Part shown: piece after piece, positions 1 through 24,505 of the stretch | How the letters are laid out: each line of letters opens with the position of its first letter | How positions within the stretch are numbered: position 1 is the first letter of the stretch | Assembly (NCBI GenBank): GCA_036257225.1 | Contig: DATAFZ010000042.1 | Span: forward strand, 1-37,449 | Source of the DNA: Candidatus Limnocylindrales bacterium | GTDB lineage: Bacteria; Chloroflexota; Limnocylindria; Limnocylindrales; CSP1-4 | Direction of reading: 5' to 3' | DNA: 37,449 bases | Notes under the pieces: model-generated | Seen by the model: only the letters and a program-made list of their open reading frames with translations | Told to the model about the DNA's origin: nothing | Databases searched by the model: none | Position numbers and translations under genes: made by a program

Positions 1-1191
1 GAGCGCCCGGAGCGCCCGGACGGTCGAGGCTCGCTCCTCGCCGAACCGAGCAGCGACACCCTCGATGTCGAGGTCGGGTTCGCCCGGCCATGGTCCGGGC
101 TCGGCCCACGTCCAGTGCGGTTCGGCGGCGGTCTCGAGGTCCCGGAGTCGACCCTGATGGACATCGATCTCGACGGCGACGAGGTGGCGGACGATCTGCT
201 CCGGCGTCCATTCGCCCGGTGGGACAGCGCCGGCCGTCTCCGCCCTGGCGGCGGCCGCAAGCCGATCCGGAAAGCCCGCGAGTGCGTCGAGCAGTGATGC
301 CCGCGACGTGGCGTCGCTCGTCGAGCCGCGGGCCAGCGTCTCGAGCTTGGCGACTCGCCAGCGCTCGGTCACTTCCACGGCGTTGAACAGATAGAGGTGG
401 AAGCCGCTGACCTTCGCATCGGCGTCGGCGATGGTCGGGGCGATCCCCTCCAGCAGCGCGTCAGGCCGGTAGAACCCGCCGGAGCGGACAAGCCGTGCCA
501 CGAACCGGACGTTCTTGGCCAGGAATCGATGCGTGTCGGCCACCCCGATCCGTGCCGCCAGCGCGAGCAGCTTCTGCGGCTCGGCGACACCCGGCACCCC
601 GACGTGGACCGGCAGCGTCAGCCCTTCCGCCCGGCGCGCGGCGATCCACGTGGCGATCGCCCCCGGGTCGAAGCACAGCTGGGTCGTCATGTACTGCGCG
701 AACTCGGCCTTCGCTCGGAGTGCATCGAGGAGGGGGCCGTCCGCGATGAACGCGTGACCCTGCGGGTAGGCGGGAATGCCGACATGGTTGAATGGATGAC
801 CGATCTCGGCCAACTCGCGCAATAGCGCGAGCCCATCGACATAGGCGCCCGGCTCCTTCTCGTCGCCGCCGACCACGAATGCCCGATCGATGCCGGCGTC
901 ATCGAGGGCCGCCACCAACGTTGTCAGGTGCGCACGATCGCGGACCATCCGCGCCGAGATGTGGGGGACGACCGTGAACCCGGCAAGGCGCAACCGGGCG
1001 GCGAGCTCCACGGTCGCTTCGAGCCCCTTGGTCGGCGACGCGGTCACGGACACGGTGGACCCGGCAGGGAGATACGCAGCCTGGTCCATCGCGTTCTTGA
1101 GTGGGATCAGTTCGAACGTCGGCGACCGCAGCAGGTCCCCCAGGGCCGTGCGGGCGTTCGGCGTCAGCCGGGCGTGACGGCGGAACAGCAC
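1..1191 (-). CDS. metF: 5,10-methylenetetrahydrofolate reductase (MetF-like) fused to a C-terminal DinB_2-like domain; 3' end runs off the window, and the ORF is absent from the supplied track
   Basis: Manual minus-strand translation from GTG at 1191..1189 gives VLFRRHARLTPNARTALGDLLRSPTFELIPLKNAMDQAAYLPAGSTVSVTASPTKG...FVVGGDEKEPGAY...GIPAYPQGH...TQLCFDPG...LPVHVGVPG, which reads as MetF-type. The frame stays open for all 397 codons down to position 1. The last ~100 aa (GEWTPEQIVRHLVAVEIDVHQGRLRDL...) look DinB/mycothiol-type. GAGG lies 8 nt upstream of the GTG. Confidence 0.7.
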   Translation of the reverse strand, partial: MLFRRHARLTPNARTALGDLLRSPTFELIPLKNAMDQAAYLPAGSTVSVTASPTKGLEATVELAARLRLAGFTVVPHISARMVRDRAHLTTLVAALDDAGIDRAFVVGGDEKEPGAYVDGLALLRELAEIGHPFNHVGIPAYPQGHAFIADGPLLDALRAKAEFAQYMTTQLCFDPGAIATWIAARRAEGLTLPVHVGVPGVAEPQKLLALAARIGVADTHRFLAKNVRFVARLVRSGGFYRPDALLEGIAPTIADADAKVSGFHLYLFNAVEVTERWRVAKLETLARGSTSDATSRASLLDALAGFPDRLAAAARAETAGAVPPGEWTPEQIVRHLVAVEIDVHQGRLRDLETAAEPHWTWAEPGPWPGEPDLDIEGVAARFGEERASTVRALRAL

Positions 1192-1194
1192 CGC

Positions 1195-2736
1195 TCAGAC
1201 CTCGGAGTCGGGCATCGACGCCTTACGGCGGATCATGAACTCCAGCAGGGCCTCATCGGTCGCCTGGTCCAGCGGCGGCGCCTCGTATTCGGCGAGCATC
1301 CGCTTCCAGATGGCGTTCGCGCGCTGGGCGGCATCCAGTCCGCCGTCCTCGCTCCACTGCTCGAAGGAATTGTTGTCGGCCACCTCGGAGCGATAGAACG
1401 CGGTCTCGAAGTTGGCCAGCGTGTGCGCCGTGCCGAGGAAGTGCTGGCCGGGACCGTTGGCCCGGATGGCATCGAGCGCCTGGCCGTTCTCGGACAGGTC
1501 GACGCCCTTCACGAACACCGCCATCATCCCGCACTGGTCGGCGTCGAGGATGAACTTCTCATAGCCGACCGACAGGCCGCCCTCCAGCCAGCCCGCGGCG
1601 TGCAACACGAAGTTGACGCCGCCGAGGACGGTCGGTTGGAGGGTGGCGGCGCTCTCGTAGGCAGCCTGCGCGTCGGGGATCTTGGACGCGCATAGCGAGC
1701 CGCCCGATCGGAACGGGACGCCCAGTCGCCGGGCGAGCGCCGCCATGATGTACAGGACGAGCGCCGGCTCCGGGGTACCGAACGTCGGCGCCCCCGACTG
1801 CATCGACATCGAGCTCGCGAAGCTGCCGAGCACGACCGGGGCGCCCGGCCGGACCAGCTGCACGAACGTCATGCCGGCGAGCGCCTCGGCGAGCGTCTGC
1901 GCGGCAACCCCCGCGGCGGTCACTGGGGCCATCGCCCCGGCCAGGATGAACGGTGTCAGCAGCGTGGCCTGGTTCGCCTCGGCGTACGCCCTTGCCGATC
2001 CGAGCATCGTCGCGTCCCAGACCAGCGGCGAGTTCGCGTTGATGAGCGACAGGATGACCGCGTGGTCGTCGAGGTAGTCGGCCCCGAACAGGATCCGCGC
2101 CATCTCCACGGTATCGCGCGCCCGCTCCGGCGCCGTCACCGAGCCCATGAACGGCTTGTCCGAGTAGCGCATGTGCGCGTAGACCATGTCGAGGTGGCGC
2201 TTGTTGACCGGGATGTCGACCGGCTCGCACACCGTCCCGCCGCTGTGATGGAGGTGCGGCGACAGGTAGGTGAGCTTCACGAGGTTCTGGAAGTCCTCGA
2301 TCGTGCCGTAGCGCCGGCCGCGGTCGAGGTCCCGTACGAACGGCGAGCCGTAGTTCGGCGCGAACACCGTGTGCATCCCGCCGATCTCGACGTTGTTCGC
2401 CTCGTTGCGTGCGTACTGCGTGAACTGGCGAGGCGCTGTCGCCTGGACGATCCGCCGACACATCCCACGCGGGAACCGGACGCGCTCGCCGTCGACGTCG
2501 GCACCTGCGTCGCGCAGCAGCCGGAGCGCGTCGGGATCACCGCGGAACTCGACGCCGACCTCCTCGAGGATGGTGTCAGCGTTGCGCTCGATGAGTGAGA
2601 GCCCCTCCTCGTCGAGCACTTCGAACGGCGCGAGGGTCCGGGTCAGGAACGGAGTGCGTTCCACGTGTGCGTGCAGCCTGGCGGCGCGACGACCCTCGCG
2701 GCCGCCGCTGCGACGCGTGGGGACGTTGTCGGTCAT
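1195..2736 (-). CDS. MttB-superfamily (non-pyrrolysine) quaternary-amine:corrinoid methyltransferase, probably glycine-betaine specific (MtgB-like)
   Basis: 513-aa ORF with no in-frame stop. Arg-rich N-terminus (RRSGGREGRRAARL) and body motifs (GGMHTVFAPNYGSPFVRDLD, LINANSPLVWD, FILAGAMAPVT, GAPTFGTPEPAL) are typical of the MttB family. ATGA stop/start overlap with the upstream activator gene. Confidence 0.88.
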   Translation of the reverse strand: MTDNVPTRRSGGREGRRAARLHAHVERTPFLTRTLAPFEVLDEEGLSLIERNADTILEEVGVEFRGDPDALRLLRDAGADVDGERVRFPRGMCRRIVQATAPRQFTQYARNEANNVEIGGMHTVFAPNYGSPFVRDLDRGRRYGTIEDFQNLVKLTYLSPHLHHSGGTVCEPVDIPVNKRHLDMVYAHMRYSDKPFMGSVTAPERARDTVEMARILFGADYLDDHAVILSLINANSPLVWDATMLGSARAYAEANQATLLTPFILAGAMAPVTAAGVAAQTLAEALAGMTFVQLVRPGAPVVLGSFASSMSMQSGAPTFGTPEPALVLYIMAALARRLGVPFRSGGSLCASKIPDAQAAYESAATLQPTVLGGVNFVLHAAGWLEGGLSVGYEKFILDADQCGMMAVFVKGVDLSENGQALDAIRANGPGQHFLGTAHTLANFETAFYRSEVADNNSFEQWSEDGGLDAAQRANAIWKRMLAEYEAPPLDQATDEALLEFMIRRKASMPDSEV

Positions 2737-4799
2737 CGCTCCCCTCCCGGAGCGCTCCGCACCACCGCCCGACGACGACGACGGTCACGCCCGTTCGTGG
2801 GGCGATCGGCCGTGAGCGGGCGAGGCGGCAGGTCAACGACCCGCTCGAGGTTCGGGCTCGGGGCGGTCCGGTGCGGGATCGCCATCGCTTCCACGAAGTG
2901 CTCCTGGAAGCGGGGCTCGACTGCCGTCTCGATCTTCTCGACCCGGCGGACGACGCCTTCGATCTCACGTCGGGCGGCGCTGGACAGCAGCGCGATCAGC
3001 GCCCCGGTGCCGGCGGCGTTGCCCGCCGCCCGGACCCGATCGAGGTCGCAGTCGGGCACGAGACCGAGGACCATCGCGTGGAGCGGGTCGATCTGGCTGC
3101 CGAACGCGCCGGCCAGCCGAACCTCGTCGACCGTGTCGATCCCAAGCTGATCCATCAGTAGCCGCGCACCGGCGTACAGCGCCGCCTTCGCGAGCTGGAT
3201 GGCACGCACGTCGTTCTGGGTGATGACGATCCGCGGCCCAGCCTCGATGGGATCGTGCAGCACGTAACTGAACGTCCGCCCGTCCTCAACGACACGCGGT
3301 GTTCGGTCGGCCACCGCGCCGTCGATCACACCGTCGGCTGTGACCACGCCGGCCAGGTAGAGCTCGGCGATCACCTCGATGATCCCCGAGCCACAGATGC
3401 CTGTGACGCCGGTGCCCTCGTTGGCCAGCGCGTCTGCGAAGTCCGGCGCATCGGACCAGGCATCGACCCCGATCACCCGGAACCGCGGTTCGAGCGTGGC
3501 GCGATCGATCCGCACCCGCTCGATCGCGCCGGGCGCAGCTCGCTGCCCGGAGCTGATCTGGGCGCCTTCGAACGCCGGGCCGGTCGGGCTGCTCGCGGCC
3601 AGCAGTCGATCGCGGTTGCCGAGCACGATCTCGGCGTTGGTGCCGACGTCGACGACCAGCGTCATCGCCTCGGCCTCGTGCGGCTCCTCGGCCAGGATCA
3701 CCCCGGCCGTGTCGGCGCCGACGTGGCCGGCGATGCACGGCAGCACGTAGACGCGAGCGCCCGGATGGGCGTAGACGCCGAGCTCGGCCGCCGTCGTCGA
3801 CACCGCCGTATCCGTCGCCAGGGCGAACGGCGCCGACCCGAGCGGGGTCGGGTCGATGCCCAGCAGCAGGTGATGCATGATCGGGTTCCCCACGATCGCG
3901 AGCTCGAGGATCTCGAGCCGCTTGACATCGGTCTTGTTGGCGAGCGCGGCGAGCAACCCGTCGAGCGCCTTGCGGACCGCCGTCGTGAGCTCGACGTCGC
4001 CGCCCTCGTGGAGCATCACGTACGAGACCCGGCTCATGAGGTCCTCGCCGAAGCGGATCTGCGGGTTCATCACCCCGGCGCTGGCGAGGATGTCGCCGGT
4101 GACCAGGTTCACCAGGTGACCGGCGATCGTGGTGGACCCGACGTCGATGGCGACCCCGAACGCCCGGTCGTGGAAGCCCGGCCAGACCGCGATCACGTCG
4201 CGACCGCCATGGACCGCCACCGTGACGCGATAGCCACCGTCGGTCAGGGCCGTCTGCAGCGAGCGGATGACCGAGAGGTCGGCGCGCAGGTCAACCAGGT
4301 CCCATTCGCGGCGAAGCGCATCGAACAGCCGGCCGAGGTCGCCGGTCGGCGTTGCGAGATCCGGCGGAACGACATCGACCGTATGGAGGCGCACGACGGG
4401 GTCCATCTCGAACGCCCGAGCCGCGAGGTCCTTGCGCACCACCTGGCGGTGGACCTGGCTTTCAGGCGGAACATCGATGACGGCGTCACCGAGCAGGACG
4501 GCCGTGCAGGACAGCCGCCGGTCGGCCGCCAGCCCCTGCTCCTCGCGATAGGCCATCTCGAGCTGGCCTGGCTCCGCGATGTGCCCCGGCGACGAGGTGA
4601 TCCCGTGTTTCGCGAACATCCCGAACGCCGGCGTGACGGTGCATCGACCGCAGATCCCTCGGCTGCCGCACACGGCATCGATGTCGACGCCGAGGGAGCG
4701 TGCTGCATCGAGCACGGTCGTGCCCGCCGCCACACGACCGCGTCGACCGGAGGGCGTGAAGATGACCTGCGGGTCGGTGGGAGCGGTCGACGGGGCCAT
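2733..4799 (-). CDS. Reductive activator of corrinoid enzymes (RACE): N-terminal plant-type [2Fe-2S] ferredoxin plus ASKHA/DUF4445 ATPase
   Basis: The N-terminus has CGSRGICGRC plus a later RLSCTAV cysteine, the 2Fe-2S pattern. The rest is a long ASKHA-like body (IDVGSTTIAGHL, VVDVGTNAEIVLG, GICGSGIIE). 688 aa. Confidence 0.85.
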   Translation of the reverse strand: MAPSTAPTDPQVIFTPSGRRGRVAAGTTVLDAARSLGVDIDAVCGSRGICGRCTVTPAFGMFAKHGITSSPGHIAEPGQLEMAYREEQGLAADRRLSCTAVLLGDAVIDVPPESQVHRQVVRKDLAARAFEMDPVVRLHTVDVVPPDLATPTGDLGRLFDALRREWDLVDLRADLSVIRSLQTALTDGGYRVTVAVHGGRDVIAVWPGFHDRAFGVAIDVGSTTIAGHLVNLVTGDILASAGVMNPQIRFGEDLMSRVSYVMLHEGGDVELTTAVRKALDGLLAALANKTDVKRLEILELAIVGNPIMHHLLLGIDPTPLGSAPFALATDTAVSTTAAELGVYAHPGARVYVLPCIAGHVGADTAGVILAEEPHEAEAMTLVVDVGTNAEIVLGNRDRLLAASSPTGPAFEGAQISSGQRAAPGAIERVRIDRATLEPRFRVIGVDAWSDAPDFADALANEGTGVTGICGSGIIEVIAELYLAGVVTADGVIDGAVADRTPRVVEDGRTFSYVLHDPIEAGPRIVITQNDVRAIQLAKAALYAGARLLMDQLGIDTVDEVRLAGAFGSQIDPLHAMVLGLVPDCDLDRVRAAGNAAGTGALIALLSSAARREIEGVVRRVEKIETAVEPRFQEHFVEAMAIPHRTAPSPNLERVVDLPPRPLTADRPTNGRDRRRRRAVVRSAPGGER

Positions 4800-4811
4800 C
4801 GGGGCCCGCCG

Positions 4812-5789
4812 TCAGCGGGAGGCCGGGACGTCGAGCCCCGGAACGTCGACGCCGGGGACGTCGGCCGAGAGCGCCGGGCCGGCGCCGTTCGAGGCGCCGC
4901 CTCGACGGCGGTTGACCCGCCGGCCACCGGCCTCGCCGGCTGGCGGCGCCACCCGGAACTGCCTGATCCATCGCGCGGCGTCCTGGTCGTTGCCCATCAA
5001 CACGTCGCTTGCCATGACTGCGTGGCGCACGCCTTCGGCGACCGGGTTGGTGATGGCCGACGTGAGCCCCGACGCGATCGCCATGCTGAGGTACGCGCCG
5101 TTGATGCCCTCCCGGTTCGGCAGGCCGAAGCTGACGTTAGACGCCCCGCAGGTCGAGTTGACCTTGAGCTCATCCCGCAGCCGTCCGAGGATGTGGAACA
5201 CCTGGCGGCCGGCGCCGGCCAGAGCCCCTATCGGCATCAACAGCGGGTCGACCACGATGTCTTCGCGCGGGATGCCGTGATCGGCGGCCCGCTCGACGAT
5301 CCGCTTGGCCACCTCGAATCGCACATCCGGATCCATCGAGATGCCGGTCTCGTCGTTGCTGATCGCGACGACCGCGCAGCCGTATTTCTTGACCAGCGGC
5401 AATACCCGCTCGAGACGCTCCTCCTCACCGGTCACGCTGTTGAGCAGCGGTTTGCCCTGGTAGACGGCGAGACCGGCCTCAAGCGCTTCCACGATCGACG
5501 AGTCGATCGACAGGGGCAGGTCGGTCAGCGACTGGACGAGTCTGATCGTCTGGGCAAGGATCGCGGGCTCGTCGGCCAGCGGGATGCCGGCGTTCACGTC
5601 GAGCATGTGGGCGCCGGCCTCGACCTGGGCGATCGTGTCCCGCTCGACGCGCGAGAAGTCGCCGGCCTTCATCTCCTCCATGAGGACCTTGCGGCCGGTC
5701 GGGTTGATCCGCTCACCGATGATCACGAACGGCTGGTCGTCGCCGATGACGACCTCGCGCGTTGCGGAGCTGACGACCGTGCGCGTCAT
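4812..5789 (-). CDS. Methyltetrahydrofolate:corrinoid methyltransferase (pterin-binding MeTr/MtgA-like)
   Basis: The track ORF 4812..5969 was trimmed to the ATG at 5789, which forms an ATGA overlap with the upstream gene. MTRTVVSSATREVVIGDDQPFVIIGERINPTGRK...MLDVNAG...NSVTGEEERL...CGASNVSFGLPNR is a pterin-binding barrel signature. Low-complexity C-terminal tail. Confidence 0.85.
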   Translation of the reverse strand: MTRTVVSSATREVVIGDDQPFVIIGERINPTGRKVLMEEMKAGDFSRVERDTIAQVEAGAHMLDVNAGIPLADEPAILAQTIRLVQSLTDLPLSIDSSIVEALEAGLAVYQGKPLLNSVTGEEERLERVLPLVKKYGCAVVAISNDETGISMDPDVRFEVAKRIVERAADHGIPREDIVVDPLLMPIGALAGAGRQVFHILGRLRDELKVNSTCGASNVSFGLPNREGINGAYLSMAIASGLTSAITNPVAEGVRHAVMASDVLMGNDQDAARWIRQFRVAPPAGEAGGRRVNRRRGGASNGAGPALSADVPGVDVPGLDVPASR

Positions 5790-6133
5790 GCGTCGGGCTT
5801 CCCCTGGGTCTCGTCGTGCGCCGGCGGGAGCGGCGGACCGCCATCCACGCCACCGGACTGGATCAGCATCGCCAGGCGGTGCTTGTCGTAATCGGCTTCG
5901 AGCCGCTCGGCCTCGGCGGCGACCTCCTGGTCGATGTCGTCGCCGCATCGCGTCTGCGTCCGGCGCCACTCCTCGATATAGGCGTTGTACGCGCGTTTCC
6001 CGGCACGGCTCGCGGCCTTGTCGATGGCGACCTGGAAGCGCGGGTGCAGGACGATCTTGCTCTGGCGGCGACCCTCACGGCCCGTCACCTGCGCCGGGAT
6101 GTCGCGCCACCAGATCACGGTCATCGTCCCCAC
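5786..6133 (-). CDS. Small conserved protein of unknown function (I recall this family as 'Virulence_fact'-like, found in MttB clusters)
   Basis: ORF beginning GTG 6133 or ATG 6124 (MTVIWWRDIPAQVTGREGRR...). GGGAGG lies upstream. Its stop overlaps the next start (ATGA). GC3-rich, with a non-Arg/Pro-biased composition. Confidence 0.6.
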   Translation of the reverse strand: MGTMTVIWWRDIPAQVTGREGRRQSKIVLHPRFQVAIDKAASRAGKRAYNAYIEEWRRTQTRCGDDIDQEVAAEAERLEADYDKHRLAMLIQSGGVDGGPPLPPAHDETQGKPDA

Positions 6134-6136
6134 CGG

Positions 6137-6799
6137 TTAGTGGCCTCCCACATCGATGACGGACGTGACGGTCGGAGCCGGGCGACCAGCGGCCACCGCG
6201 GCCATCGTTGTCGCGAGCTGGCCGTAGCCAGTCTTCCGCTGCTCGAACCGCAGCCCGAGGCGACGCGCGGCGCGCCGCGCCGCCGTGGCGAGAGCAGGAT
6301 CGTCGGTCTGAGCGAGGTAGACGAGTCGGCGGTAGTTGCCGAAGAACTGGTCTCGCAGCTCGGGATGACGGTCGAGGCCCAGTCCCTTGATGACGAGCCG
6401 GTCGAAGTTGCGCGCCAGGAAATCGGTCAGGAAGAAGGTCGCGGGCTCGTCGTCGACCATCCGGGCGAACTCCGGGCTCGTCGCATAGAACTCGTAGCAG
6501 TGGGCCCCGGCCAGGCGCTCGACGCCCTCGTCAGCGATGACCGGATCGAGCAGACCGCCGGTCCCGCAGTCGGCATACGCGACGAAGACGCGGTCGTAGC
6601 CGGCCCGTCGCCTACGGATGCGGTCGCGGACCGCGGCGGGGATACCGCCCGGCCGGTTGTGTAGCGTCGCCGGCAGGCAGCTGATGTCGACGTTCGGCAG
6701 GTCTTTGGTCAGGGCGACCAGCTCCCTCGCCAGCGCACCGCAGCCGACGACGAGAACGCGCGGAGCCTCGGCCCGAGGTCTACGCCGGGACGCTGGCAC
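6137..6799 (-). CDS. DUF1638 domain protein
   Basis: 220 aa, GTG start. RVLVVGCGALAREL...LPATLHNRP...VFVAYADCGTGG...CYEFY...FFLTDFLARNFD resembles the DUF1638 family that accompanies corrinoid methyltransferase genes. Confidence 0.7.
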   Translation of the reverse strand: MPASRRRPRAEAPRVLVVGCGALARELVALTKDLPNVDISCLPATLHNRPGGIPAAVRDRIRRRRAGYDRVFVAYADCGTGGLLDPVIADEGVERLAGAHCYEFYATSPEFARMVDDEPATFFLTDFLARNFDRLVIKGLGLDRHPELRDQFFGNYRRLVYLAQTDDPALATAARRAARRLGLRFEQRKTGYGQLATTMAAVAAGRPAPTVTSVIDVGGH

Positions 6800-7493
6800 G
6801 GGTCCTGGCGCGTCGCTCGTCGATCAATCGACGCGCCGTCTCAGCCGCCACACCGGCGTCCCGGCAGTAGGCATCTGCGCCGACCGCCATCCCGAATTCC
6901 TCGTTCAACGGCGCACCGCCCACCAGGACGATGTAGTCGTCCCGCATCTCGCGATCCTTGAGGGTCTGGATGACGACCTTCATGTACGGCATGGTGGTCG
7001 TGAGCAACGCCGACATGCCGAGGATGTCCGGCTTGTGCTCGGTGAGGGCATTGATGAACTTGTCGGCGTCGGTGTTGATCCCGAGGTCGACGACCTCGAA
7101 CCCGGCGCCCTCGAGCATCATCCCGACCAGGTTCTTGCCGATGTCGTGGATGTCGCCCTTGACGGTGCCGATGACGACCTTGCCGACCGGCTCCGCCCCG
7201 GTCTCCGCGAGCAGCGGGCGAAGGATCTCCATGCCGGCTTTCATCGCGTTCGCTGCCAGCAGCACCTCGGGCACGAACAGGATGCCGTCGCGGAAGTCGA
7301 TCCCGACGATCTTCATGCCGGCGACCAACGCGTCGTCGAGCACCTTGGTCGCCGAGAAGCCGCGATCGAGCAGGATCTTCGTCCCCTCGACGATCTCGTT
7401 CTTCATCCCGTCGTAGAGGTCGTTGTGCATCTGCTCGACCAGCTCGTCGTCCGACAGGCTGTTGAGGTCGATGTCCTGGTAGTCGTCGGTCAT
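6780..7493 (-). CDS. Corrinoid (cobalamin-binding) methyl-carrier protein
   Basis: B12-binding DxHxxG motif (GDIHDIGKN), MSALLTTT and LVGGAPL motifs, and an N-terminal helical cap. The ATG at 7493 (MTDDYQ...) has GGAG 9 nt upstream, so I prefer it. The track start 7538 and the ATG at 7520 are alternatives. Confidence 0.88.
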   Translation of the reverse strand: MTDDYQDIDLNSLSDDELVEQMHNDLYDGMKNEIVEGTKILLDRGFSATKVLDDALVAGMKIVGIDFRDGILFVPEVLLAANAMKAGMEILRPLLAETGAEPVGKVVIGTVKGDIHDIGKNLVGMMLEGAGFEVVDLGINTDADKFINALTEHKPDILGMSALLTTTMPYMKVVIQTLKDREMRDDYIVLVGGAPLNEEFGMAVGADAYCRDAGVAAETARRLIDERRARTRASVPA

Positions 7494-7528
7494 CGGGTTC
7501 GGCTCCGGAGGAAAGGCCATCGCTTGGG

Positions 7529-7547
7529 GGTTCCACATCGTGGAACC
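7529..7547. promoter_or_regulatory. Perfect 8-3-8 inverted repeat GGTTCCAC-atc-GTGGAACC, candidate IclR operator
   Basis: Read directly from the sequence. It lies between the divergent corrinoid operon and the IclR gene. A third half-site, TGGAACC, sits at 7559..7565. Confidence 0.4.
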
Positions 7548-7599
7548 GTGCCGTATGATGGAACCTGCAGGACTCCGAATCTAGAACACGAAGGTACCG

Positions 7600-8352
7600 A
7601 TGTCCAGCGTCCAGTCCATCAGACGAGCCTTTGCCGTGCTCGGCGCCCTCGACGAGGGGCCGCTCGGCGTGACCGAGGTGGCGGAACGCGCGGCGCTGCC
7701 GAAGTCGACAGCGGCGAGGCTCCTGGCCACGCTGGTCGGCGAGGGCGCGGTCGAGCAGGTTCCGGGGGAGACCGCGTACCGGCTCGGACCGCGGCTGATC
7801 ACCCTGGCGGGTGGCTTCTCGCTCGTTCGCTCGATGGCTGCGGTAGGTCGGCCGGTCCTCGCCGACCTGGCGGCCGCCTCCGGCGAGTCCGCCGGGATCG
7901 GCGTGCCGGATGGGGACCTCATCCACTACATCGATCAGGTCGACACGCCCAATCCGGTCGTCGTTCGCGACTGGACCGGCGCGCGGGCGCCGCTCCACGC
8001 CGTTTCGTCCGGTCAGGTGTTGCTGGCGTTCCGTACGCCCGCGGCGATCGAGCGGTACCTGGCCCAGCCATCACTCGAACGGTTCACGCCCCGTACCCTG
8101 ACCGACCGCGACGCGGTCCGTACGCGACTACGGGATGTGCGCCGGCGCGGCTACGCGTGGGCGATCGAGGAGTTCGACGCTGGGATCGCGTCAGTCGCGG
8201 CGCCGATCGCCGATGCCTCGGGCGAGGTCATCGCCGCGGTCCATATCCACGGACCGTCGTACCGCTTCCCACCCAAAGGCCGCGAGACGGAGCTGGCGCA
8301 GATGGTCGTGACGGCCGCCGCGCGGATCGCGGCGGGCCTCCGGGAGGGATAG
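7600..8352 (+). CDS. IclR-family transcriptional regulator
   Basis: N-terminal wHTH (SIRRAFAVLGALDEGPLGVTEVAERAALPKSTAARLL) and a C-terminal IclR effector domain (GYAWAIEEFDAGIASVAAPI). 250 aa. Confidence 0.9.
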   Translation: MSSVQSIRRAFAVLGALDEGPLGVTEVAERAALPKSTAARLLATLVGEGAVEQVPGETAYRLGPRLITLAGGFSLVRSMAAVGRPVLADLAAASGESAGIGVPDGDLIHYIDQVDTPNPVVVRDWTGARAPLHAVSSGQVLLAFRTPAAIERYLAQPSLERFTPRTLTDRDAVRTRLRDVRRRGYAWAIEEFDAGIASVAAPIADASGEVIAAVHIHGPSYRFPPKGRETELAQMVVTAAARIAAGLREG

Positions 8353-8409
8353 ATCCCGTGGGCTGAGAGTCCACACGGAGGTGTCAATCCTCACACCGGG
8401 CGCGCTGCC

Positions 8410-8733
8410 CTACTCCCCCTTGGTCGCCGGGCCGACCGGCTCCAGGTCGATGGTCCGGACCTGGCGGGTCTTGCCGGCCTCGGTCCGCACGACGGCCGAC
8501 GGGATCACCCCATTCGCGAGTCGCTCGATGACGGCGGTCTCACCGGCGTACAAGCCGGTGCCTGTGATTCGGACTCGTCCCCCGACGGTCAGTCCGGCGC
8601 GGCCCTTACCCGCCGTGATGTCGATGTTGGCCACGGTCGGCCGAACATATGGCGCGTCGTCCGGCAGCCCCGTTGGCGGGGCGGGTCGATTGGCGGTCTT
8701 CGGCGGCGGGTACGTGACTTTCCGTCTTGCCAC
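8410..8733 (-). CDS. Hypothetical small protein, possible KOW/SH3-like fold
   Basis: 107 aa, GTG start with AGGAG 5 nt upstream. GGRVRITGTGLYAGETAVIERL...RTEAGKTRQVRTIDLEPV. No family recognised. Confidence 0.5.
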   Translation of the reverse strand: MARRKVTYPPPKTANRPAPPTGLPDDAPYVRPTVANIDITAGKGRAGLTVGGRVRITGTGLYAGETAVIERLANGVIPSAVVRTEAGKTRQVRTIDLEPVGPATKGE

Positions 8734-8744
8734 AGCTTCTCCTG

Positions 8745-9089
8745 CTACTCGGATGCGGCCGACTTCGCGGCCCGTTTCACCTTGGCGGCCTTCGCTTCGA
8801 CGTCCGCGGCGAGCTCGGCCGCCTCCTCGGCGGCAGCGGCCCGGGCTTCGTCCAGGACCTCGTCCCCCTCGGCGGTCGCGCCGGTCGCCGAGGATCGGGC
8901 CTCGTTGACCTGTGCGGTCACCTTGGAACGGACGTCGCGCGTCCGCTCCTCGATCTCGTCGCCGAGCTGGCCGAGCTTGCGGTCGACGCGGTAGCGGTCC
9001 CTGAAACGCGACCCCGCCCGCGACATGTACCAGGCCGCCGCCCCGGCGGCGACGGCGACTCCGGTGATGACGCCACGGATGAAGCCCAT
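8745..9089 (-). CDS. YtxH-like membrane-anchored stress protein
   Basis: N-terminal TM segment (GFIRGVITGVAVAAGAAAWYM) followed by a charged Ala/Glu-rich helical region, the typical YtxH layout. Confidence 0.55.
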   Translation of the reverse strand: MGFIRGVITGVAVAAGAAAWYMSRAGSRFRDRYRVDRKLGQLGDEIEERTRDVRSKVTAQVNEARSSATGATAEGDEVLDEARAAAAEEAAELAADVEAKAAKVKRAAKSAASE

Positions 9090-9154
9090 CAGGTCACCTT
9101 CCTCTCAGCGCGGGTCGTTCCGCGTTGGAGGGGAGTGTAGCGCCGACCGGTCGC

Positions 9155-10156
9155 TCAACCGCCACCACGCGCCCGGCGGATCTCGTCGCTGATCGCCGGC
9201 ACCACGGCATGGACATCGCCGACGACCGCGTAGCTCGCCCGCTTGAAGATCGGGGCGTCCTGATCGGTGTTGATGACCAGGATCCGCTTCGCCGCCTTGG
9301 CGCCGACGATGTGCTGGATCGCGCCGCTGATCCCGCACGCGATGTACAGATCGGGCGCGATACGCGTGCCCGTCTGGCCGATCTGCTGGGCATGGGGCCG
9401 CCACCCGAGGCTCGTTGCCACGCGCGACACCCCGACGGCCGCGCCCAGGAGCTCGGCCAGCTCGTCGAGCATCGCGAAGGCCTCGGCGCTGCCGAGGCCG
9501 CGCCCACCGCCGACCACGACCTTCGCGTCCGACAGCGAGACGCCAGCCTCGCCCGCGACCTCGTGGCCGACGATCCGGGCCCGGCGGTCCCCGTCCGTGA
9601 TCGTCGGCGCCACGCTGACAACGGTCGCCGCCGTCGACGACGAGGCCGGCTCCATCGCCGGCACGGCATGTGGGGCCACGGTGAACATGCGTGGCGCCCC
9701 ATCAAGCCACGCCTCCTCGATCAGGCTGCCGGCCCAGCGCTGACGATCGAGCTTCCATCGATCGCCTGGCTCGATGGTGATGACGTTCGCCGCCATCGGC
9801 AGATCCATGCGAGCGGCGACGTGCGCGAGCACCTCGGTGGCGCGCTCGCTACCGGACGCGACGATCGCGTCGTAGTTGCCGCCCTCCGCGACCCCCTCCA
9901 CCGCCGCGGCCCAGGCCGCCGGGGCGTACGCGTCCAGGCGGTCGCCCGACACGAGGTGGACGGTCGCGACACCATATGCGCCGAGGCCGGGCGCAGCAGA
10001 GGCGGCCGAGTCGGCATCGCCCGATCCGGCGCCGACCACCGCGTGGACCTCGACACTGAGCGCCCGCGCCAGGCCGCCGGCGAGACCGAGCGCCTCGGCG
10101 CTCAGCCGGTCGGGCCCGCCGCCGGCCAGCTCGACAAGGACGAGGACGTCGCTCAC
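9155..10156 (-). CDS. etfA: Electron transfer flavoprotein alpha subunit
   Basis: C-terminal FAD-binding signature (VGVSRVATSLGWRPHAQQIGQTGTRIAPDLYIACGISGAIQH). GTGA overlap with etfB. Confidence 0.9.
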   Translation of the reverse strand: MSDVLVLVELAGGGPDRLSAEALGLAGGLARALSVEVHAVVGAGSGDADSAASAAPGLGAYGVATVHLVSGDRLDAYAPAAWAAAVEGVAEGGNYDAIVASGSERATEVLAHVAARMDLPMAANVITIEPGDRWKLDRQRWAGSLIEEAWLDGAPRMFTVAPHAVPAMEPASSSTAATVVSVAPTITDGDRRARIVGHEVAGEAGVSLSDAKVVVGGGRGLGSAEAFAMLDELAELLGAAVGVSRVATSLGWRPHAQQIGQTGTRIAPDLYIACGISGAIQHIVGAKAAKRILVINTDQDAPIFKRASYAVVGDVHAVVPAISDEIRRARGGG

Positions 10157-10917
10157 AGGACGCCCAACTCGCGGAGCAAGGCCACTACCCGGGGGGCTGC
10201 CTCGGGACCGGTGCCCAGGATCTCGACGTGTTGCTCCTTCTCGACCGGCAGCTGGAGGCGCTCGAGTGTCGGGCCACCCGGCCGCCGCTCCGGCACGATC
10301 CGCTCGACCTCCTTCTTTTTCGCCCGCAGCCGGCCCGGCACGGATGGATAGCGCGGGAGGTTGATCCCCTCGCGGACGGTGACGATCGCCGGCAATGGCA
10401 GCTCGAACACATCCGCGCCATCCGGCACCTGGCGCCGTGCCGTCGCGACGCCGTCGCCGACCTCGAGCGCCTTGATGCCGGTGACGATGGGCCGGTCCAG
10501 GGCGACCGCGAGACGGACACCCACCTGGTAGCCGCCCGAGTCGGCCGACTCGTTCCCGCCCAGGATCACGTCGAACGACCCGCCGGCGGCCTCGAGATCA
10601 CGGACGGCGTCGGCGATGGCGGCGGACGTGGCGTACGGATCCCAGTCCGACCCGTCCGTCTCGAGCAGGACCGCACGGTCGACGCCGATCGCCATGGCGT
10701 CGCGCAGCTGGTCGGCCGCCTCGGGCGGGCCGAGCGTCAGCACCACCGATTCGCCGCCGTTCGCCTCGATCAGGCGGACGGCCTCCTCCACGGCGCATTC
10801 CTCGTGCGGGCTGACGACGAATCCGAGGAAGCGCGTGTCGATCGATCGGGCGTCCTCGGTCAGGACGATGCGCCCACCGGTGGCGGGGATGCGCTTGACG
10901 AGGACGAGGATCCGCAT
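10153..10917 (-). CDS. etfB: Electron transfer flavoprotein beta subunit
   Basis: MRILVLVKRIP...SPHEECAVEEAVRL...VILGGNESADSGGYQVG is typical EtfB. Sits 10 nt downstream of the dehydrogenase gene. Confidence 0.9.
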   Translation of the reverse strand: MRILVLVKRIPATGGRIVLTEDARSIDTRFLGFVVSPHEECAVEEAVRLIEANGGESVVLTLGPPEAADQLRDAMAIGVDRAVLLETDGSDWDPYATSAAIADAVRDLEAAGGSFDVILGGNESADSGGYQVGVRLAVALDRPIVTGIKALEVGDGVATARRQVPDGADVFELPLPAIVTVREGINLPRYPSVPGRLRAKKKEVERIVPERRPGGPTLERLQLPVEKEQHVEILGTGPEAAPRVVALLRELGVL

Positions 10918-10927
10918 CGGTGCTCGG

Positions 10928-13453
10928 TCAGCTCCTGATCCGCGCGTTGTCCGGGTCGAACAGCGGCGTGCTGCCGGCGACCGCGACCGTCACCGGGTAG
11001 CGCTCGCCGAAGTACTCGACGAGGAGCTTGGTACCCTCGACCGCCTGCGCCGGGGGCAGGTACGACATCAGCAGGTGCTTGCCCACGGACGGCCCGGATC
11101 CGGCGCTCGTCACATACGAGCGACGTCCCTTCGCGTCGACCAGCGGGCTGCCGTCCTCGGCGAGGATCGGCTCGCGGCCAAGCATGTAGCGCTTGACGCC
11201 GCTCGTCGACGTGTTGTCGTCGACGGTCAACGTGCACAGGAGCGCGGCCGGCGACGAATCGCGCTTTCGCAGGTACGCCTCGCGACCGACGAAGTCGTCG
11301 TCCTTGACGGTGAGCCGTGCCATCCCGGCCTCGACGAGGTCGAAGTCGAGCTCGAGCTCCGCACCGTGCGCCCGGTAGCCCTTCTCGAGCCGGGACGTCA
11401 CCGCGTACGTGCCGATGCCGACCGGGACGAGCCCGTGCGGCTGGCCGGCTCGCCACAGGGCATCCCAGACGCGGAGGCCCTGCTCGATCGGGACGTAGAT
11501 CTCCCACCCGAGCTCGCCGACGTAGCTGATGCGCGACGAGAGCGTCCGCACGCCGTCGATGTCGACGGTCTTGGACGTCAGGAATGGGAAACCCTTGTGG
11601 CTGATGTCCGCGCGGCCGTCCGCCGCCGCGCCGAGGATGTCGCGCGCACGCGGGCCCCACAGCCCGAACGTGGTGAACGCGTTGGTCACGTCGTGCAGTT
11701 GCGCGGACCCGTCGGCCGGCATCGCGTCCTGGAAGATCTTCCGATCGCGCATCCCCATGCCGCCGCCGGTCACGACCCGGAAGCGGTCGTGGGCCAGCCG
11801 CATCACGGTCAGATCCGCCAGGATCCCGCCGGCGGCGTTCAGCAGCGGCGTATAGACGGTCCGGCCGGGGGCAACGTCGACGCGATTGACGCAAAGGCGC
11901 TCGAGTGCGGCCAAGGCGCCGGGTCCGGTGATGTCGAAGATCGCGAACGCGGACAGGTCGACAAGCCCGGCACGGTCACGCATCGCGAGGTGCTCGGCGT
12001 TGATGATCGGCGACCACCAGCGCGAGTCCCACTCGGCCTCGCGCGGCATCACCCGGTCGCCGTACTCGCCGAGGAGGCCCTCGTTCGTGCCGTACCAGTA
12101 CGGCCGCTCCCAGCCCGCCGCCTCGAAGAACTCGGCGCCGAGCTCGACGTGGCGCTCGTAGGCCGGCGACAGCCTGATCTTGCGGTTGGAGGCCCACTGC
12201 TCCATCGGATGGACGATGCCGTAGGTCTTGTTGAACCCCTCGGTCGTGCGCGCCGCGATGTGCTGCGCGGTCTTGTGATGGTCGTAGAACCGGGCGACAT
12301 CCGACCCGTGCGGGTCGATCTCCGGCTCGCCGGTGGTCATCCACTCGGCTAACGCCTTGGCGATGCCCGGCGCCTCCTTGATCCAGATCGCCGCGGCCGA
12401 CCAGAGCCCCTTGACCTCCGGTGTCTCGCCGATGATCGGGTTGCCGTCCGGCGTGAGCGACAGTAGGCCGTTGATCGCCAGCTTCACGCCGACCGATTCG
12501 TCGCCGACGATCTCGGGAAAGAGCTCGAGCGCATCCTCGAGCTGCGGATCGAAGTCCTCCTGGGTGAACGGCAGCATGGTCGGCGACAGGGCCGACGCCT
12601 CGATCGACGGGATGTCATCGGCTTCCATCAGGATGGCCCGGTGGGCGTACGAACCGACCTCGAAGCCGGTGCCGTGCTGGCGCTCGTACATGTTGGTGTC
12701 CATGTCGCGGACGATCGGGAAGCCGACCTCCTTGGTCGTGTGCTCGAACTGCGGAACCGGACCGATGTCGATCATCTGGTGGACCGCCGGCGTCAACGGG
12801 ATCGACGCCCCGGCCATACGCGCGATCCGCGGGCTCCACACGCCGCACGCGATGACGACGGTATCGGCGGCGATGTGACCCTGATCCGTGCGAACCCCGC
12901 GCACATGGCCGTCGACGACGTCGACGCCGGTGACCTCGACGCCCGCCGCGACCGTCAGGGCCCCCTTCTGCTGGGCCTTCTCGCGCATGAGCGTCCCGGC
13001 CTGCAGCGAGTCGACGATGCCGACGCCCGGCGTGTAGAAGCCACCGAGGATCACCGACTCGTCGATGAACGGGACCATCTCCTTGACCTCGTCGGGGGTC
13101 AGCAACCGGGACCCCTCGATGCCCCACGAAGTCGACGACGCCATGCGCCGCTTGAGCTCCTCCATCCGCTCGGGGGTGCGGGCGACCTCGATGCCGCCGG
13201 TCTCGTCGTACACGCCCATCTCGCGGTACTGGTTGGCGCTATCGACCGTGAATGCGGTCATCTCCTTCGAGTGGTCGGTCAGGAAGATGAAGTTCGAGGC
13301 ATGGCCGGTGGACCCGCCCGGACTCGGCAGGGGGCCCTTGTCGAGCAGCACGATGTCCTTCCAGCCTTGCTCGGCAAGCTGGTAGGCCATGCTGTTGCCG
13401 ACGATGCCGGCGCCGATGACGACGACGTCCGCTCGCGCCGGGAGCGCGCCCAT
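10928..13453 (-). CDS. Dimethylglycine/sarcosine dehydrogenase-family FAD oxidoreductase with C-terminal GcvT-type folate-binding domain (paralogue 1)
   Basis: The track ORF was trimmed to the ATG at 13453 (MGALPARADVVVIGAGIVGNS, GxGxxG). Conserved His in GGSTGHASNF, the covalent-FAD position in this family. C-terminal aminomethyltransferase fold (SRLEKGYRAHG ... PLFDPDNARIRS). 841 aa. Confidence 0.85.
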   Translation of the reverse strand: MGALPARADVVVIGAGIVGNSMAYQLAEQGWKDIVLLDKGPLPSPGGSTGHASNFIFLTDHSKEMTAFTVDSANQYREMGVYDETGGIEVARTPERMEELKRRMASSTSWGIEGSRLLTPDEVKEMVPFIDESVILGGFYTPGVGIVDSLQAGTLMREKAQQKGALTVAAGVEVTGVDVVDGHVRGVRTDQGHIAADTVVIACGVWSPRIARMAGASIPLTPAVHQMIDIGPVPQFEHTTKEVGFPIVRDMDTNMYERQHGTGFEVGSYAHRAILMEADDIPSIEASALSPTMLPFTQEDFDPQLEDALELFPEIVGDESVGVKLAINGLLSLTPDGNPIIGETPEVKGLWSAAAIWIKEAPGIAKALAEWMTTGEPEIDPHGSDVARFYDHHKTAQHIAARTTEGFNKTYGIVHPMEQWASNRKIRLSPAYERHVELGAEFFEAAGWERPYWYGTNEGLLGEYGDRVMPREAEWDSRWWSPIINAEHLAMRDRAGLVDLSAFAIFDITGPGALAALERLCVNRVDVAPGRTVYTPLLNAAGGILADLTVMRLAHDRFRVVTGGGMGMRDRKIFQDAMPADGSAQLHDVTNAFTTFGLWGPRARDILGAAADGRADISHKGFPFLTSKTVDIDGVRTLSSRISYVGELGWEIYVPIEQGLRVWDALWRAGQPHGLVPVGIGTYAVTSRLEKGYRAHGAELELDFDLVEAGMARLTVKDDDFVGREAYLRKRDSSPAALLCTLTVDDNTSTSGVKRYMLGREPILAEDGSPLVDAKGRRSYVTSAGSGPSVGKHLLMSYLPPAQAVEGTKLLVEYFGERYPVTVAVAGSTPLFDPDNARIRS

Positions 13454-13502: not shown

Positions 13503-13601
13503 TACCCGTCCGCCGACCCGGCCTGCGGCCCCCACCCTTGACCCGCCCCGATGCCGGTCGCATCCTCGCGCTCGCTGGGTCCGAGCAGCACGAGGGCATC
13601 C

Positions 13602-18734: not shown

Positions 18735-18864
18735 CACCCTCCTCTTGGCCGCGCTGGCTCCCTCGGGAGCGGCGTGCGACGGAGTATAGGTGGTCGAATC
18801 CACCATCTCGGCACGGATCGCGGAGCGCGACGCGCGATCGAACGCCCGTATCCTGACCGGCACC

Positions 18865-21327: not shown

Positions 21328-21542
21328 CCCCGCAAATACCCGCCGAGCCGCTATCGCGCTGGATACGCGGCGTTAACAAAGTCATCACATGGTCTTGACG
21401 CCCCGCGATGCGAGAGGTGGAATGCAGCGACACCGGAGGGCGGCCCAGAGATCGACCCGCATCCGGGCGTGATCCGAGCATGAGGAGGGCTCGGGTCGGG
21501 GTCCACCGCGAACCGTTACCGCATGGATCTGGAGGAGGCACG

Positions 21543-22745: not shown

Positions 22746-22769
22746 CGCCCGTCCATCGACGAGGTCACC

Positions 22770-23669: not shown

Positions 23670-24505
23670 CGACCGCGACGGCGACAGCCGCGCAAGGCGC
23701 TCGCCGCCGACGCCGCGGCTTCGGCGCGTGGTGGGCGTGGGTCGTCTTCATCCTCGGTGCGCTGTACTTCATCCTGCCGCTGATCGGCGTCTTCGCCCAC
23801 TCGATCAGGACGCGGCCCGACATCTTCCTGGCGTATCGCCAGGTCTTCGCTGACCCCGCGTTCTTCCGCGGGCTCGGCTACTCGTTCCTCGCCGGGCTGC
23901 TGACCGTCGTCATCAGCCTGCTGATCATCGTGCCGACCGCGTACTGGGTCCGGCTTCGCGTCCCGCAGCTGCGGCCGGTCGTCGAGTTCGTGACGCTGAT
24001 GCCGTTCGTGATCCCGCCGGTCGTGCTCGCGTTCGGCCTGATCCGCATCTACAGCCAGGGGCCCGTCCGCCTGGCAAGCACGGACACGGGACTCAACGTG
24101 ATGCTCGTCGGGGCCTACGTCGTGCTGTCGTTCCCGTACATGTATCGCGCGGTCGATACCGGCCTCGCCGCCATCGACGTCCGCACGCTCACCGAGGCCG
24201 CGCAGAGCCTCGGTTCAGGCTGGGCGCGCATCCTCTCCCGCGTCATCTTCCCGAACCTGCGGACGTCGCTGTTGTCGGGGGCCTTCCTCACGCTCGCCAT
24301 CGTGATCGGCGAGTACACGATCGCCCAGGTGCTCGCCCGGACCACCGCGTTCGCGCCGTACCTGTCGCTGCTCGGGCGAAACCAGCCATACCAGCCTGCC
24401 GCCGTCTCGCTCATCAGCTTCGGGCTGACCTGGCTGGCGATGATCTTGATCGCGTTCCTCGGCCGTGGCTCGCGCACGCGGGTCCAGGTCGCGGGCGCCC
24501 GTTAG
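23666..24505 (+). CDS. ABC transporter permease
   Basis: ATG at 23666 in an ATGA overlap with the preceding permease (the track start is GTG 23654). Six TM segments, PotC/MalG-type. Confidence 0.85.
   Translation: MTTATATAAQGARRRRRGFGAWWAWVVFILGALYFILPLIGVFAHSIRTRPDIFLAYRQVFADPAFFRGLGYSFLAGLLTVVISLLIIVPTAYWVRLRVPQLRPVVEFVTLMPFVIPPVVLAFGLIRIYSQGPVRLASTDTGLNVMLVGAYVVLSFPYMYRAVDTGLAAIDVRTLTEAAQSLGSGWARILSRVIFPNLRTSLLSGAFLTLAIVIGEYTIAQVLARTTAFAPYLSLLGRNQPYQPAAVSLISFGLTWLAMILIAFLGRGSRTRVQVAGAR

Follow-up and report, generated by a model that had tools for sequence, protein, structure and literature searches.

Seven tightly packed genes run along the minus strand from position 7493 down to position 1 of the window, by which we mean the whole stretch of DNA analysed here (contig DATAFZ010000042.1, positions 1-37,449, forward strand, 37,449 nt; coordinates are window positions). 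They encode, in this order, a corrinoid protein, a DUF1638 protein, a small Virulence_fact protein, a pterin-binding methyltransferase, a reductive activator, a methyltransferase of the MttB superfamily and a protein resembling methylenetetrahydrofolate reductase (MTHFR; Table 1). Judging from orthology and conserved context, the operon is likely a self-contained module, controlled by an IclR-family regulator, that would convert glycine betaine to dimethylglycine (DMG) in the manner of the aerobic MtgBCD systems. The organism is known solely from metagenomes; an independent metagenome contig (L001) is 99.7% identical to the window over 7.4 kb.

Because the guanine-cytosine (GC) content is about 70% across the whole window, long spurious open reading frames (ORFs) are common, and real reading frames were picked by third-position GC. 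Long plus-strand ORFs over the operon (for example, 3255-5891) fail the third- and second-position GC filter that the real genes pass, and were discarded as high-GC artefacts. Domains were called with Pfam and NCBIfam profiles, and solved relatives were found by sequence search of the PDB. All seven minus-strand genes, with the domains that an earlier note on this DNA had named in them, were recovered with Pfam, including full-length MTTB; profiles for the MttB, B12-binding, pterin-binding and activator domains each matched in the scan of the operon proteins. The gene reading of the operon is sound.

Table 1. Genes and other features of the window, with the evidence for each assignment
Feature	Position	Strand	Evidence
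Corrinoid carrier protein, MtgC-like, 237 aa	6780-7493	-	Pfam B12-binding 96.8 bits, B12-binding_2 59.9 bits
DUF1638 protein, 220 aa	6137-6799	-	Pfam DUF1638 97.4 bits
Small Virulence_fact (PF13769) protein, 112-115 aa	5786-6133	-	Pfam 70.5 bits
Methyl-corrinoid:tetrahydrofolate methyltransferase, pterin-binding TIM barrel (MtgD/MtgA/MeTr-like), 325 aa	4812-5789	-	Pterin_bind 89.9 bits
RACo/RamA-type ATP-dependent reductive activator, 688 aa	2733-4799	-	Fer2, RACo_linker, Raco_middle, RACo_C_ter
Non-pyrrolysine MttB-superfamily substrate:corrinoid methyltransferase, 513 aa	1195-2736	-	Pfam MTTB 771 bits, full length
MTHFR-like TIM barrel with DinB_2, cut by the window edge	1-1191	-	MTHFR 23.5 bits, DinB_2 23.6 bits
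Perfect palindrome GTTCCAC-N3-GTGGAAC	7530-7546		iclR/mtgC intergenic region
Sigma-70-like promoter match facing iclR	7532-7559	+	Consensus match only
Sigma-70-like promoter match TGGACA-17-TAGATT upstream of the corrinoid gene	7578-7606	-	Consensus match only
IclR-family regulator, divergent	7600-8352	+	Pfam HTH_IclR, IclR_C
etfA	9155-10156	-	Pfam ETF
etfB	10153-10917	-	Pfam ETF
Dimethylglycine/sarcosine dehydrogenase-like flavoenzyme	10928-13453	-	Pfam DAO, FAO_M, GCV_T; 578 bits to Arthrobacter DMGO (1PJ5)
Betaine aldehyde dehydrogenase	13551-15071	+	NCBIfam TIGR01804 top model, 610 bits, below cut-off of 668.6
Close relative of N,N-dimethylglycine oxidase, 845 aa, FAD and folate-binding GCV_T	18790-21327	+	Pfam DAO, FAO_M, GCV_T, GCV_T_C
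PhnS/PotD-like ABC transporter (binding protein, two permeases, TOBE_2 ATPase), then HAD-family hydrolase	21408-26366	+	Directly downstream of the DMGO-like gene

The earlier note had described the genes as joined by 4-bp overlaps or by gaps of 12 nt or less. This description fits all junctions but one. Read from the sequence, the Virulence_fact/pterin-binding and activator/MttB junctions are ATGA overlaps, and the gaps measure 3-12 nt between the DUF1638 and Virulence_fact genes, 12 nt between the pterin-binding and activator genes, and 3 nt between the MttB and MTHFR-like genes. It does not fit the junction of the corrinoid and DUF1638 genes, where the sole usable DUF1638 start (GTG 6799) gives a 20-nt overlap with the end of the corrinoid gene (stop at 6780). 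For the pterin-binding gene the correct start is ATG 5789 and not GTG 5969. No terminator-like sites were found on the minus strand within the operon.

For comparison we kept 80 related loci, one per species. Of these, 27 (Chloroflexota and Actinomycetota) have the complete set of seven genes in collinear order, and 16 further loci keep at least the core of mtgC, mtgD, ramA and mttB collinear. Given this collinearity across species-representative loci, the seven-gene arrangement is beyond chance; gene content, coupling, orthology and conserved context are all observed directly. By their MttB proteins the closest genomes are metagenome-assembled genomes (MAGs) that bear the label Ca. Limnocylindrales or Chloroflexia (81-92% identical), followed by Actinomycetota (Gaiellales, Acidimicrobiia and Thermoleophilia; 74-78%) and then by Proteobacteria (about 70-73%).

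The flanks of the 80 loci hold a DMGDH-family gene in 30 cases and an ETF gene in 18. A Pfam scan of 136 flanking ORFs from 16 related loci found GCV_T and DAO to be the commonest families (8 ORFs each), with IclR and ETF at 5 each; MetH-type S-methyl_trans and GMC oxidoreductase reached 3 ORFs each, level with several other families. The closest plasmid-borne homologue, on Azoarcus plasmid pAZKH, has folD and ETF-QO on one side and betA and betB on the other, with a gene for a choline-binding protein also in its flanks. The cluster of Sinorhizobium meliloti (L082) lies near bmt and the ATPase gene of a glycine betaine/proline ABC transporter, and the plasmid cluster of Paracoccus methylovorus (L083) lies beside genes for carnitine 3-dehydrogenase and a GlxA-family regulator.

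Methyl-transfer and reactivation proteins

The corrinoid protein carries the DxHxxG motif as DIHDIG at residue 114 and is 71% identical to MtgC of the S. meliloti cluster. Its top NCBIfam models are two that are named 'glycine betaine-specific corrinoid protein MtgC', which score 205 and 174 bits, both below cut-off, and its best solved match is 1Y80. The pterin-binding protein passes NCBIfam PRK07535 (346 bits vs a cut-off of 259) and is 62% identical to MtgD of the S. meliloti cluster; its solved relatives are MeTr (2YCK/1F6Y) and MetH's folate domain. The activator consists of an N-terminal 2Fe-2S ferredoxin domain and an ASKHA domain, with all four RACo-type Pfam domains and the Cys pattern CX5CX2C...C. 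It aligns to RACo (3ZYY) over residues 11-644 with 302 bits, and is 57% identical to the RamA proteins of S. meliloti and Paracoccus.

The two remaining small proteins also have counterparts in the S. meliloti cluster, a DUF1638 protein (53% identical) and an ORF labelled 'virulence factor' (41% identical to the Virulence_fact protein), and we infer a role in the system for both. A genetic link of DUF1638 to B12 reactivation has been reported in Phaeobacter (PMC5764234). The Virulence_fact gene is found in most related operons. Structural searches added little: hits in the DUF1638 homologue search were all at least 84% identical, the AF2 model built from this shallow alignment was poor (pLDDT 64, pTM 0.53), and Foldseek of that model against the PDB returned nothing at E <= 0.001 (TM-scores <=0.31). 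PDB sequence searches with the DUF1638 and Virulence_fact proteins gave chance-level hits only. Five Actinomycetes MAGs (L024, L034, L039, L041 and L053) keep mtgC, the Virulence_fact gene, mtgD, ramA and mttB, and a DUF1638 homologue was undetected between mtgC and the Virulence_fact gene; in that lineage DUF1638 may be dispensable or encoded elsewhere.

The MttB-family protein and its substrate

Database names would make the 513-aa protein a trimethylamine (TMA):corrinoid methyltransferase and the operon a device for methylotrophic TMA use. The protein belongs to Pfam MTTB, and JGI names near-identical proteins 'trimethylamine--corrinoid protein Co-methyltransferase'. In our homologue search all of the 8,000 scored candidates matched at E <= 1e-20. 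The best 120 of these 8,000 are 85-94% identical and come mostly from JGI and ENA metagenomes; where named, they bear the label 'trimethylamine--corrinoid protein Co-methyltransferase' or else 'trimethylamine methyltransferase family protein', although the proteins lack pyrrolysine. The search thus returned near-identical soil sequences with generic names and gave no functional information. Two of the matches (P0006 and P0031; 746 and 691 aa) are RACo_C_ter-MttB read-throughs.

The protein itself speaks against TMA as the substrate. It is read from 513 uninterrupted codons with no in-frame stop, and since there is no in-frame amber codon there is no pyrrolysine, the residue central to TMA activation (PMC13080624). 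TIGR02369, the equivalog model of pyrrolysine-containing MttB, scores 254.7 bits, far below its cut-off of 525. The solved pyrrolysine MttB (7XCL) aligns to residues 263-491 only, with 106 bits, against 412 bits for MtgB of Desulfitobacterium hafniense (about 410 bits for 2QNE/9YCE). Furthermore, the methyl acceptor enzyme of the operon is of the tetrahydrofolate (THF) type, and the genomic context is one of betaine and DMG. We regard TMA use as very improbable.

The best PDB match is 4YYC (727 bits), whose sequence is that of the MttB protein of the S. meliloti cluster. The window protein is 66% identical to it and 68% to the Paracoccus protein (66-72% when Azoarcus is included), and in a neighbour-joining (NJ) tree these three proteins and the window protein form one clade, outside which fall four other MttB-family copies (54-61% identical). 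The comparison in this tree covered MtgB of D. hafniense, 4YYC and further MttB-family copies.

In D. hafniense MtgB betaine is bound by Y97, R312, H348 and F356 (Picking et al., JBC 2026, PMC13080624), a tetrad that the same authors call the likely minimum set for MtgB homologues. We mapped these residues with a HMMER alignment and an 85-sequence alignment. Y97, R312 and H348 correspond to Y129, R343 and H379 of the window protein, which are invariant across the clade. The retention of Y129 mildly favours betaine, as Y97 is reported to be unconserved in MtpB, MtcB, MtyB and MthB (PMC13080624). W383, four residues upstream of the position of F356, is invariant in the clade. We considered W383 and the surrounding GWLEGG motif as a betaine-specific stand-in for F356 and rejected this idea, the motif being present also in MttB-family copies from unrelated contexts. 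Second, divergent MttB copies (57-61% identical) occur less than 10 kb from the main copy in a Steroidobacteraceae MAG (L043:1117-2565, minus strand) and an Acidimicrobiaceae MAG (L078:13961-15397, plus strand); in the former the equivalent of Y129 is Gly.

From these comparisons, the 513-aa protein is probably an MtgB-like glycine betaine methyltransferase, and glycine betaine is the likely substrate of the operon because of its neighbours in the window: a betaine aldehyde dehydrogenase, a relative of N,N-dimethylglycine oxidase (DMGO), and a second paralogue of the latter coupled to etfBA. The strongest evidence, however, is the genomic context of the Azoarcus and S. meliloti homologues. The proposal of the earlier note, that the first demethylation of betaine is corrinoid- and THF-dependent within an otherwise oxidative pathway, gains support from MtgBCD orthology, the betA/betB context in Azoarcus, the recurring DAO plus GCV_T, ETF and GMC flanks, the betaine aldehyde dehydrogenase, the DMGO relative and the match of the MTHFR-like protein to S6MTHFR (see below).

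Several points weigh against this assignment. The window protein is just 43% identical to the assayed MtgB of D. hafniense, and F356 of the betaine tetrad is replaced by G387; as the tetrad is considered the likely minimum set, strict membership of the D. hafniense-type MtgB family is not shown. The replacement motif GWLEGG marks no betaine-specific group. The MttB clade, with its proteobacterial, Chloroflexota and Actinomycetota members, is without any assayed enzyme, and in Ruegeria pomeroyi mtgC and mtgD alone were knocked out, the MtgB assignment there being based on proteomics (PMC12478193). Moreover, we identified no betaine-type transporter (BCCT or ProX/OpuAC) in the window, where the ABC system is PhnS/PotD-like.

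The same machinery could therefore act on another substrate, such as proline betaine, carnitine, gamma-butyrobetaine, choline or phosphocholine, or a further quaternary amine, with the betaine and DMG neighbours drawn from converging pathways. The missing F356 and the type of ABC transporter fit this alternative. So do general features of the superfamily: members that share more than 50% identity can have different substrates (MtcB and MtyB share 53%), several MttB-family copies per genome are common, and R312 and, to a lesser degree, H348 are also kept in enzymes for other acidic quaternary amines (PMC13080624). The Paracoccus relative adjoins carnitine 3-dehydrogenase, yet aerobic carnitine catabolism also ends in betaine (PMC12478193). 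Other quaternary amines would not give DMG, whereas DMG/sarcosine oxidoreductases and ETF are the commonest neighbours in two phyla; the Azoarcus homologue directly adjoins betA/betB, whose product is glycine betaine; and the tyrosine lost in MtpB, MtcB, MtyB and MthB is kept here. On this evidence a different substrate seems unlikely, and we retain glycine betaine.

The MTHFR-like protein and the fate of the methyl group

The last gene of the operon runs past the end of the window, which holds 397 of its 436 residues; the full length was read from L001. The earlier note had called it MetF. It is indeed MTHFR-like, but divergent, closer to S6MTHFR and fused to a DinB_2 domain. Its TIM barrel spans residues about 14-280 and DinB_2 forms the C-terminus. 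We rejected canonical MetF because the Pfam MTHFR score is below threshold (23.5 bits vs a gathering score of 24), TIGR00676 gives 35.5 bits vs a cut-off of 293.7, and the protein shows no resemblance to the MTHFRs that the proteobacterial clusters encode. The top solved match by far is S6MTHFR (7XG9, 113 bits), and canonical bacterial MetF structures were unmatched at E<=1.

S6MTHFR is the only solved MTHFR shown to oxidise methyl-THF (CH3-THF), and it defines a 'type 4' family tied to THF-dependent demethylases, CmuAB included (Yu et al. 2025, PMC11868366). Equivalents of its catalytic Glu21, Asp107 and Gln175 are kept in the window protein as E27, D110 and the Q of 'TTQLCFD'. The type-4 motif regions are the loop beta2-alpha3, helix alpha8 and the loop beta8-alpha11, for which the text of that study names L48-P49, F215/C219 and Y267-P268-F269 (PMC11868366). 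Among the residues so named, P49, Y267 and F269 are kept in our alignment, and four are changed (L48 to Ser, F215 to Leu, C219 to Ile and P268 to Leu).

Since its closest solved match oxidises CH3-THF, it is plausible that the MTHFR-like protein oxidises the CH3-THF product of the operon. The direction of the reaction is, however, a point on which the proposal is exposed: five residues in or beside the type-4 regions, as these are given in that text, are unconserved (L48, R78, F215, C219 and P268), and together with the sub-threshold Pfam score this makes flavin content and reaction direction uncertain. In almost every Chloroflexota or Actinomycetota locus the gene comes after mttB.

In the window and in L001, DinB_2 is fused in frame to the MTHFR-like protein (window 1-330, minus strand). 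Relatives have DinB as a gene of its own, its start and the MTHFR stop sharing a GTGA or ATGA overlap (for example, L070:12340-12800 and L004:12411-12890); a small indel, together with the lost stop codon, produced the fusion. Other Limnocylindria loci have the DinB homologue at a distance of 2-8 kb. The S. meliloti (L082:7440-9115) and Paracoccus (L083:8298-10051) clusters have instead a two-gene MTHFR, annotated as 'methylenetetrahydrofolate reductase' and 'MTHFR C-terminal domain-containing protein'. Similarity between this two-gene proteobacterial MTHFR and the single S6MTHFR-like gene was undetectable, and the two represent a non-orthologous replacement at one step of the pathway.

A second outlet for CH3-THF lies close by. 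From 1.3 kb past the left edge of the window, L001 encodes a full-length MetH (L001:8863-12639) with PF02574, PF00809, PF02607, PF02310 and PF02965, and thus with its own folate, B12 and reactivation parts. Its adjacency points to methionine synthesis as a possible direct use of the CH3-THF that the demethylase makes. Large ORFs occupy the same relative position in three other loci (L070:14071-17568, L005:14624-18475 and L032:14354-17509) and probably account for the three S-methyl_trans hits in the flank survey.

The proximity of a methionine synthase gene is also a point in favour of a mainly anabolic module, in which MtgC, MtgD, RamA and DUF1638 would be the core of a cobalamin-dependent methionine synthase in split form, like that of Phaeobacter inhibens, and the MttB gene a passenger. 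We found no stand-alone S-methyl_trans gene (the homocysteine-binding subunit, MtgE/BHMT-like) in the operon or the window. MetH, having folate, B12 and reactivation domains of its own, does not need the operon proteins. In addition, the MttB and MTHFR-like genes are translationally coupled in the operon and co-conserved with it. We consider an anabolic role highly unlikely; with no MtgE in the window and a complete MetH adjacent, even a dual role in methionine synthesis is probably absent.

Regulation, neighbouring genes and related systems

The divergent iclR and the corrinoid gene are separated by a 106-nt intergenic region that contains both sigma-70-like matches, the only promoter-like matches in positions 1-9200. 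Most Chloroflexota loci have an IclR homologue (59-76% identical) in divergent orientation immediately upstream of mtgC. The palindrome in this region has one exact match in the window, vs 0.06 expected by chance (within 2 mismatches), and it recurs exactly, just upstream of the mtgC homologue, in seven related Limnocylindria and Chloroflexia loci (L005, L009, L013, L015, L017, L019 and L070). It is probably the operator of the divergent IclR protein, which would probably regulate the operon through this conserved site. A further GGTTCCA half-site lies 11 nt from the palindrome in the window. Rfam and tRNA scans found no Rfam family, and hence no cobalamin riboswitch, and no tRNA gene in the window.

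The GbsA-type aldehyde dehydrogenase, the two DMGDH/SARDH-family flavoenzymes and etfBA that the earlier note had placed beside the operon are all there by Pfam, with betaine aldehyde dehydrogenase and DMGO as best solved matches; domain scans also bore it out that no BHMT-type or Rieske/GbcAB-type demethylase gene is found in the window. The DMGDH-like gene, whose start we revised to ATG 13453 behind GGAGGAGG, forms a second operon (9155-13453) with etfB and etfA, with a 10-nt gap and a GTGA overlap at the junctions. This trio also flanks the operon in Actinomycetota loci. For the aldehyde dehydrogenase, the best PDB entries are named betaine aldehyde dehydrogenase (552 bits; 4MPB, which we take to be S. 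aureus BetB, and others), and the next class scores 414 bits. Beyond it come an APC-family permease gene and the gene for the 845-aa protein, which matches DMGO of Arthrobacter globiformis (1PJ5) over its full length with 958 bits. Arthrobacter DMGO uses O2, and the presence of so close a relative therefore indicates an aerobic lifestyle.

Two other reading frames of the window were noted. A 114-aa ORF between etfA and iclR (8745-9089, minus strand) has high third-position GC and a counterpart in L070 that is 64% identical, its family match being a weak YtxH-like one only. A 1357-aa signalling protein (26684-30757, plus strand) contains four GAF domains, two GGDEF stretches and an EAL domain.

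A pathway could thus be drawn as follows. The MttB-family enzyme would bind glycine betaine and transfer one N-methyl group to the corrinoid protein in its Co(I) state, and the pterin-binding enzyme would pass the methyl from methyl-Co(III) to THF. The RACo/RamA-type protein, probably aided by DUF1638, would use ATP to re-reduce the Co(II) corrinoid, a step that should often be needed in an oxic cell. CH3-THF could be converted to methylene-THF (CH2-THF) by the S6MTHFR-like enzyme for C1 oxidation or assimilation or, alternatively, be taken directly by the MetH encoded just downstream. Two neighbours, the DMGO-like oxidase and the DMGDH-like/ETF pair, would then oxidise DMG to sarcosine and glycine, and the adjacent betaine aldehyde dehydrogenase would supply the pathway from choline-derived betaine aldehyde.

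This kind of system has already been described in aerobic marine bacteria. In aerobic R. pomeroyi, genetic evidence showed that growth on glycine betaine requires MtgC and MtgD (Mausz et al., PNAS 2025, PMC12478193), and betaine induces the MttB-family MtgB1/2, RamA, DUF1638 and a MetF paralogue (PMC12478193). These genes lie together in S. meliloti and among marine Alpha-, Gamma- and Deltaproteobacteria, in clusters that hold RamA, DUF1638 and MetF2 and in many cases DMG/sarcosine genes as well (PMC12478193). The statement in the earlier note that the characterised examples come from strict anaerobes is accordingly outdated, and the novelty it implied is not supported, aerobic MtgBCD clusters having been published in 2025 (PMC12478193). 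The window shares with the aerobic MtgBCD(E) systems a PF06253 MtgB, MtgC, MtgD, RamA, DUF1638, an MTHFR paralogue and DMG/sarcosine neighbours; with the S. meliloti cluster in particular, six of its proteins are 41-71% identical and the MttB proteins share one NJ clade. It differs in phylum and habitat, the host being a soil lineage of Chloroflexota, probably Ca. Limnocylindria, not Proteobacteria; in having all parts in one translationally coupled operon; in its CH3-THF enzyme, a single S6MTHFR-like protein with DinB_2; and in the absence of MtgE from the window beside a complete MetH.

The MtgB/MtgC/MtgA system of D. hafniense with its RamA homologue (Ticak et al. 2014; Picking et al. 2026, PMC13080624) has the three-component chemistry that is proposed here, with methyl transfer from betaine to a Co(I)-corrinoid protein and on to THF, and with reductive activation. 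The MttB fold and the equivalents of Y97, R312 and H348 are common to both. The two differ in the low identity of their MttB proteins, in the change of F356 to Gly and in the corrinoid protein, which in the window falls below both NCBIfam MtgC cut-offs; D. hafniense is an anaerobic respirer, whereas the window operon adjoins an oxidase-type DMGO relative and ETF. In Eubacterium limosum, MtqC/MtqA act with MtpB, MtcB, MtyB and MthB (PMC8604678, PMC12155760), by description also a chain from an MttB-superfamily enzyme to a corrinoid protein to a THF methyltransferase. It differs in that its host lives as a strict anaerobe and has about 42 MttB-family copies with one corrinoid protein in common, and in that the substrates are other quaternary amines.

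Two further systems resemble parts of the operon. As in the type-4 S6MTHFR group (LigM/DesA in Sphingobium SYK-6, CmuAB in Methylorubrum CM4; PMC11868366), the MTHFR-like gene stands directly behind a CH3-THF-producing demethylase; the window protein differs by its C-terminal DinB_2 and by L48, R78, F215, C219 and P268, residues identified from the text of that study, which it does not conserve. The split methionine synthase of P. inhibens (Price et al. 2018, PMC5764234) also has separate B12-binding, pterin-binding, RamA-like and DUF1638 proteins in an aerobe. The P. inhibens enzyme makes methionine and depends on a homocysteine-binding subunit, whereas the window operon is without that subunit and adds the MttB and MTHFR-like genes.

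In MAG surveys, mttB genes of this sort from Limnocylindria are counted as signs of anaerobic methylotrophy (PMC11264602); for this clade, the genomic context argues that this reading is wrong. The practical value of the assignment lies in annotation, as very many homologues in soil metagenomes bear the trimethylamine methyltransferase name. The S6MTHFR-like protein with its DinB_2 partner and the active site lacking F356 are candidates for enzymology, and DUF1638 and the small Virulence_fact protein emerge as parts of a widespread system.

We lean, with considerable reservation, towards a broader picture in which soil Chloroflexota (Ca. Limnocylindria) and Actinomycetota turn over betaine by a dedicated, purely catabolic, B12-dependent MtgBCD operon that is uncoupled from methionine synthesis and has its own non-orthologous S6MTHFR-like/DinB_2 CH3-THF oxidase and a betaine pocket without F356. 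If this is true, the genes that bear the name 'trimethylamine methyltransferase' by the thousands in metagenomes of oxic soils would represent cobalamin-dependent betaine catabolism, not TMA use or anaerobic methylotrophy. If the assignment holds, cobalamin-dependent betaine demethylation, recently shown in marine Proteobacteria, would extend to abundant soil Chloroflexota and Actinomycetota, and betaine and choline turnover in oxic soils would depend partly on the supply of vitamin B12.

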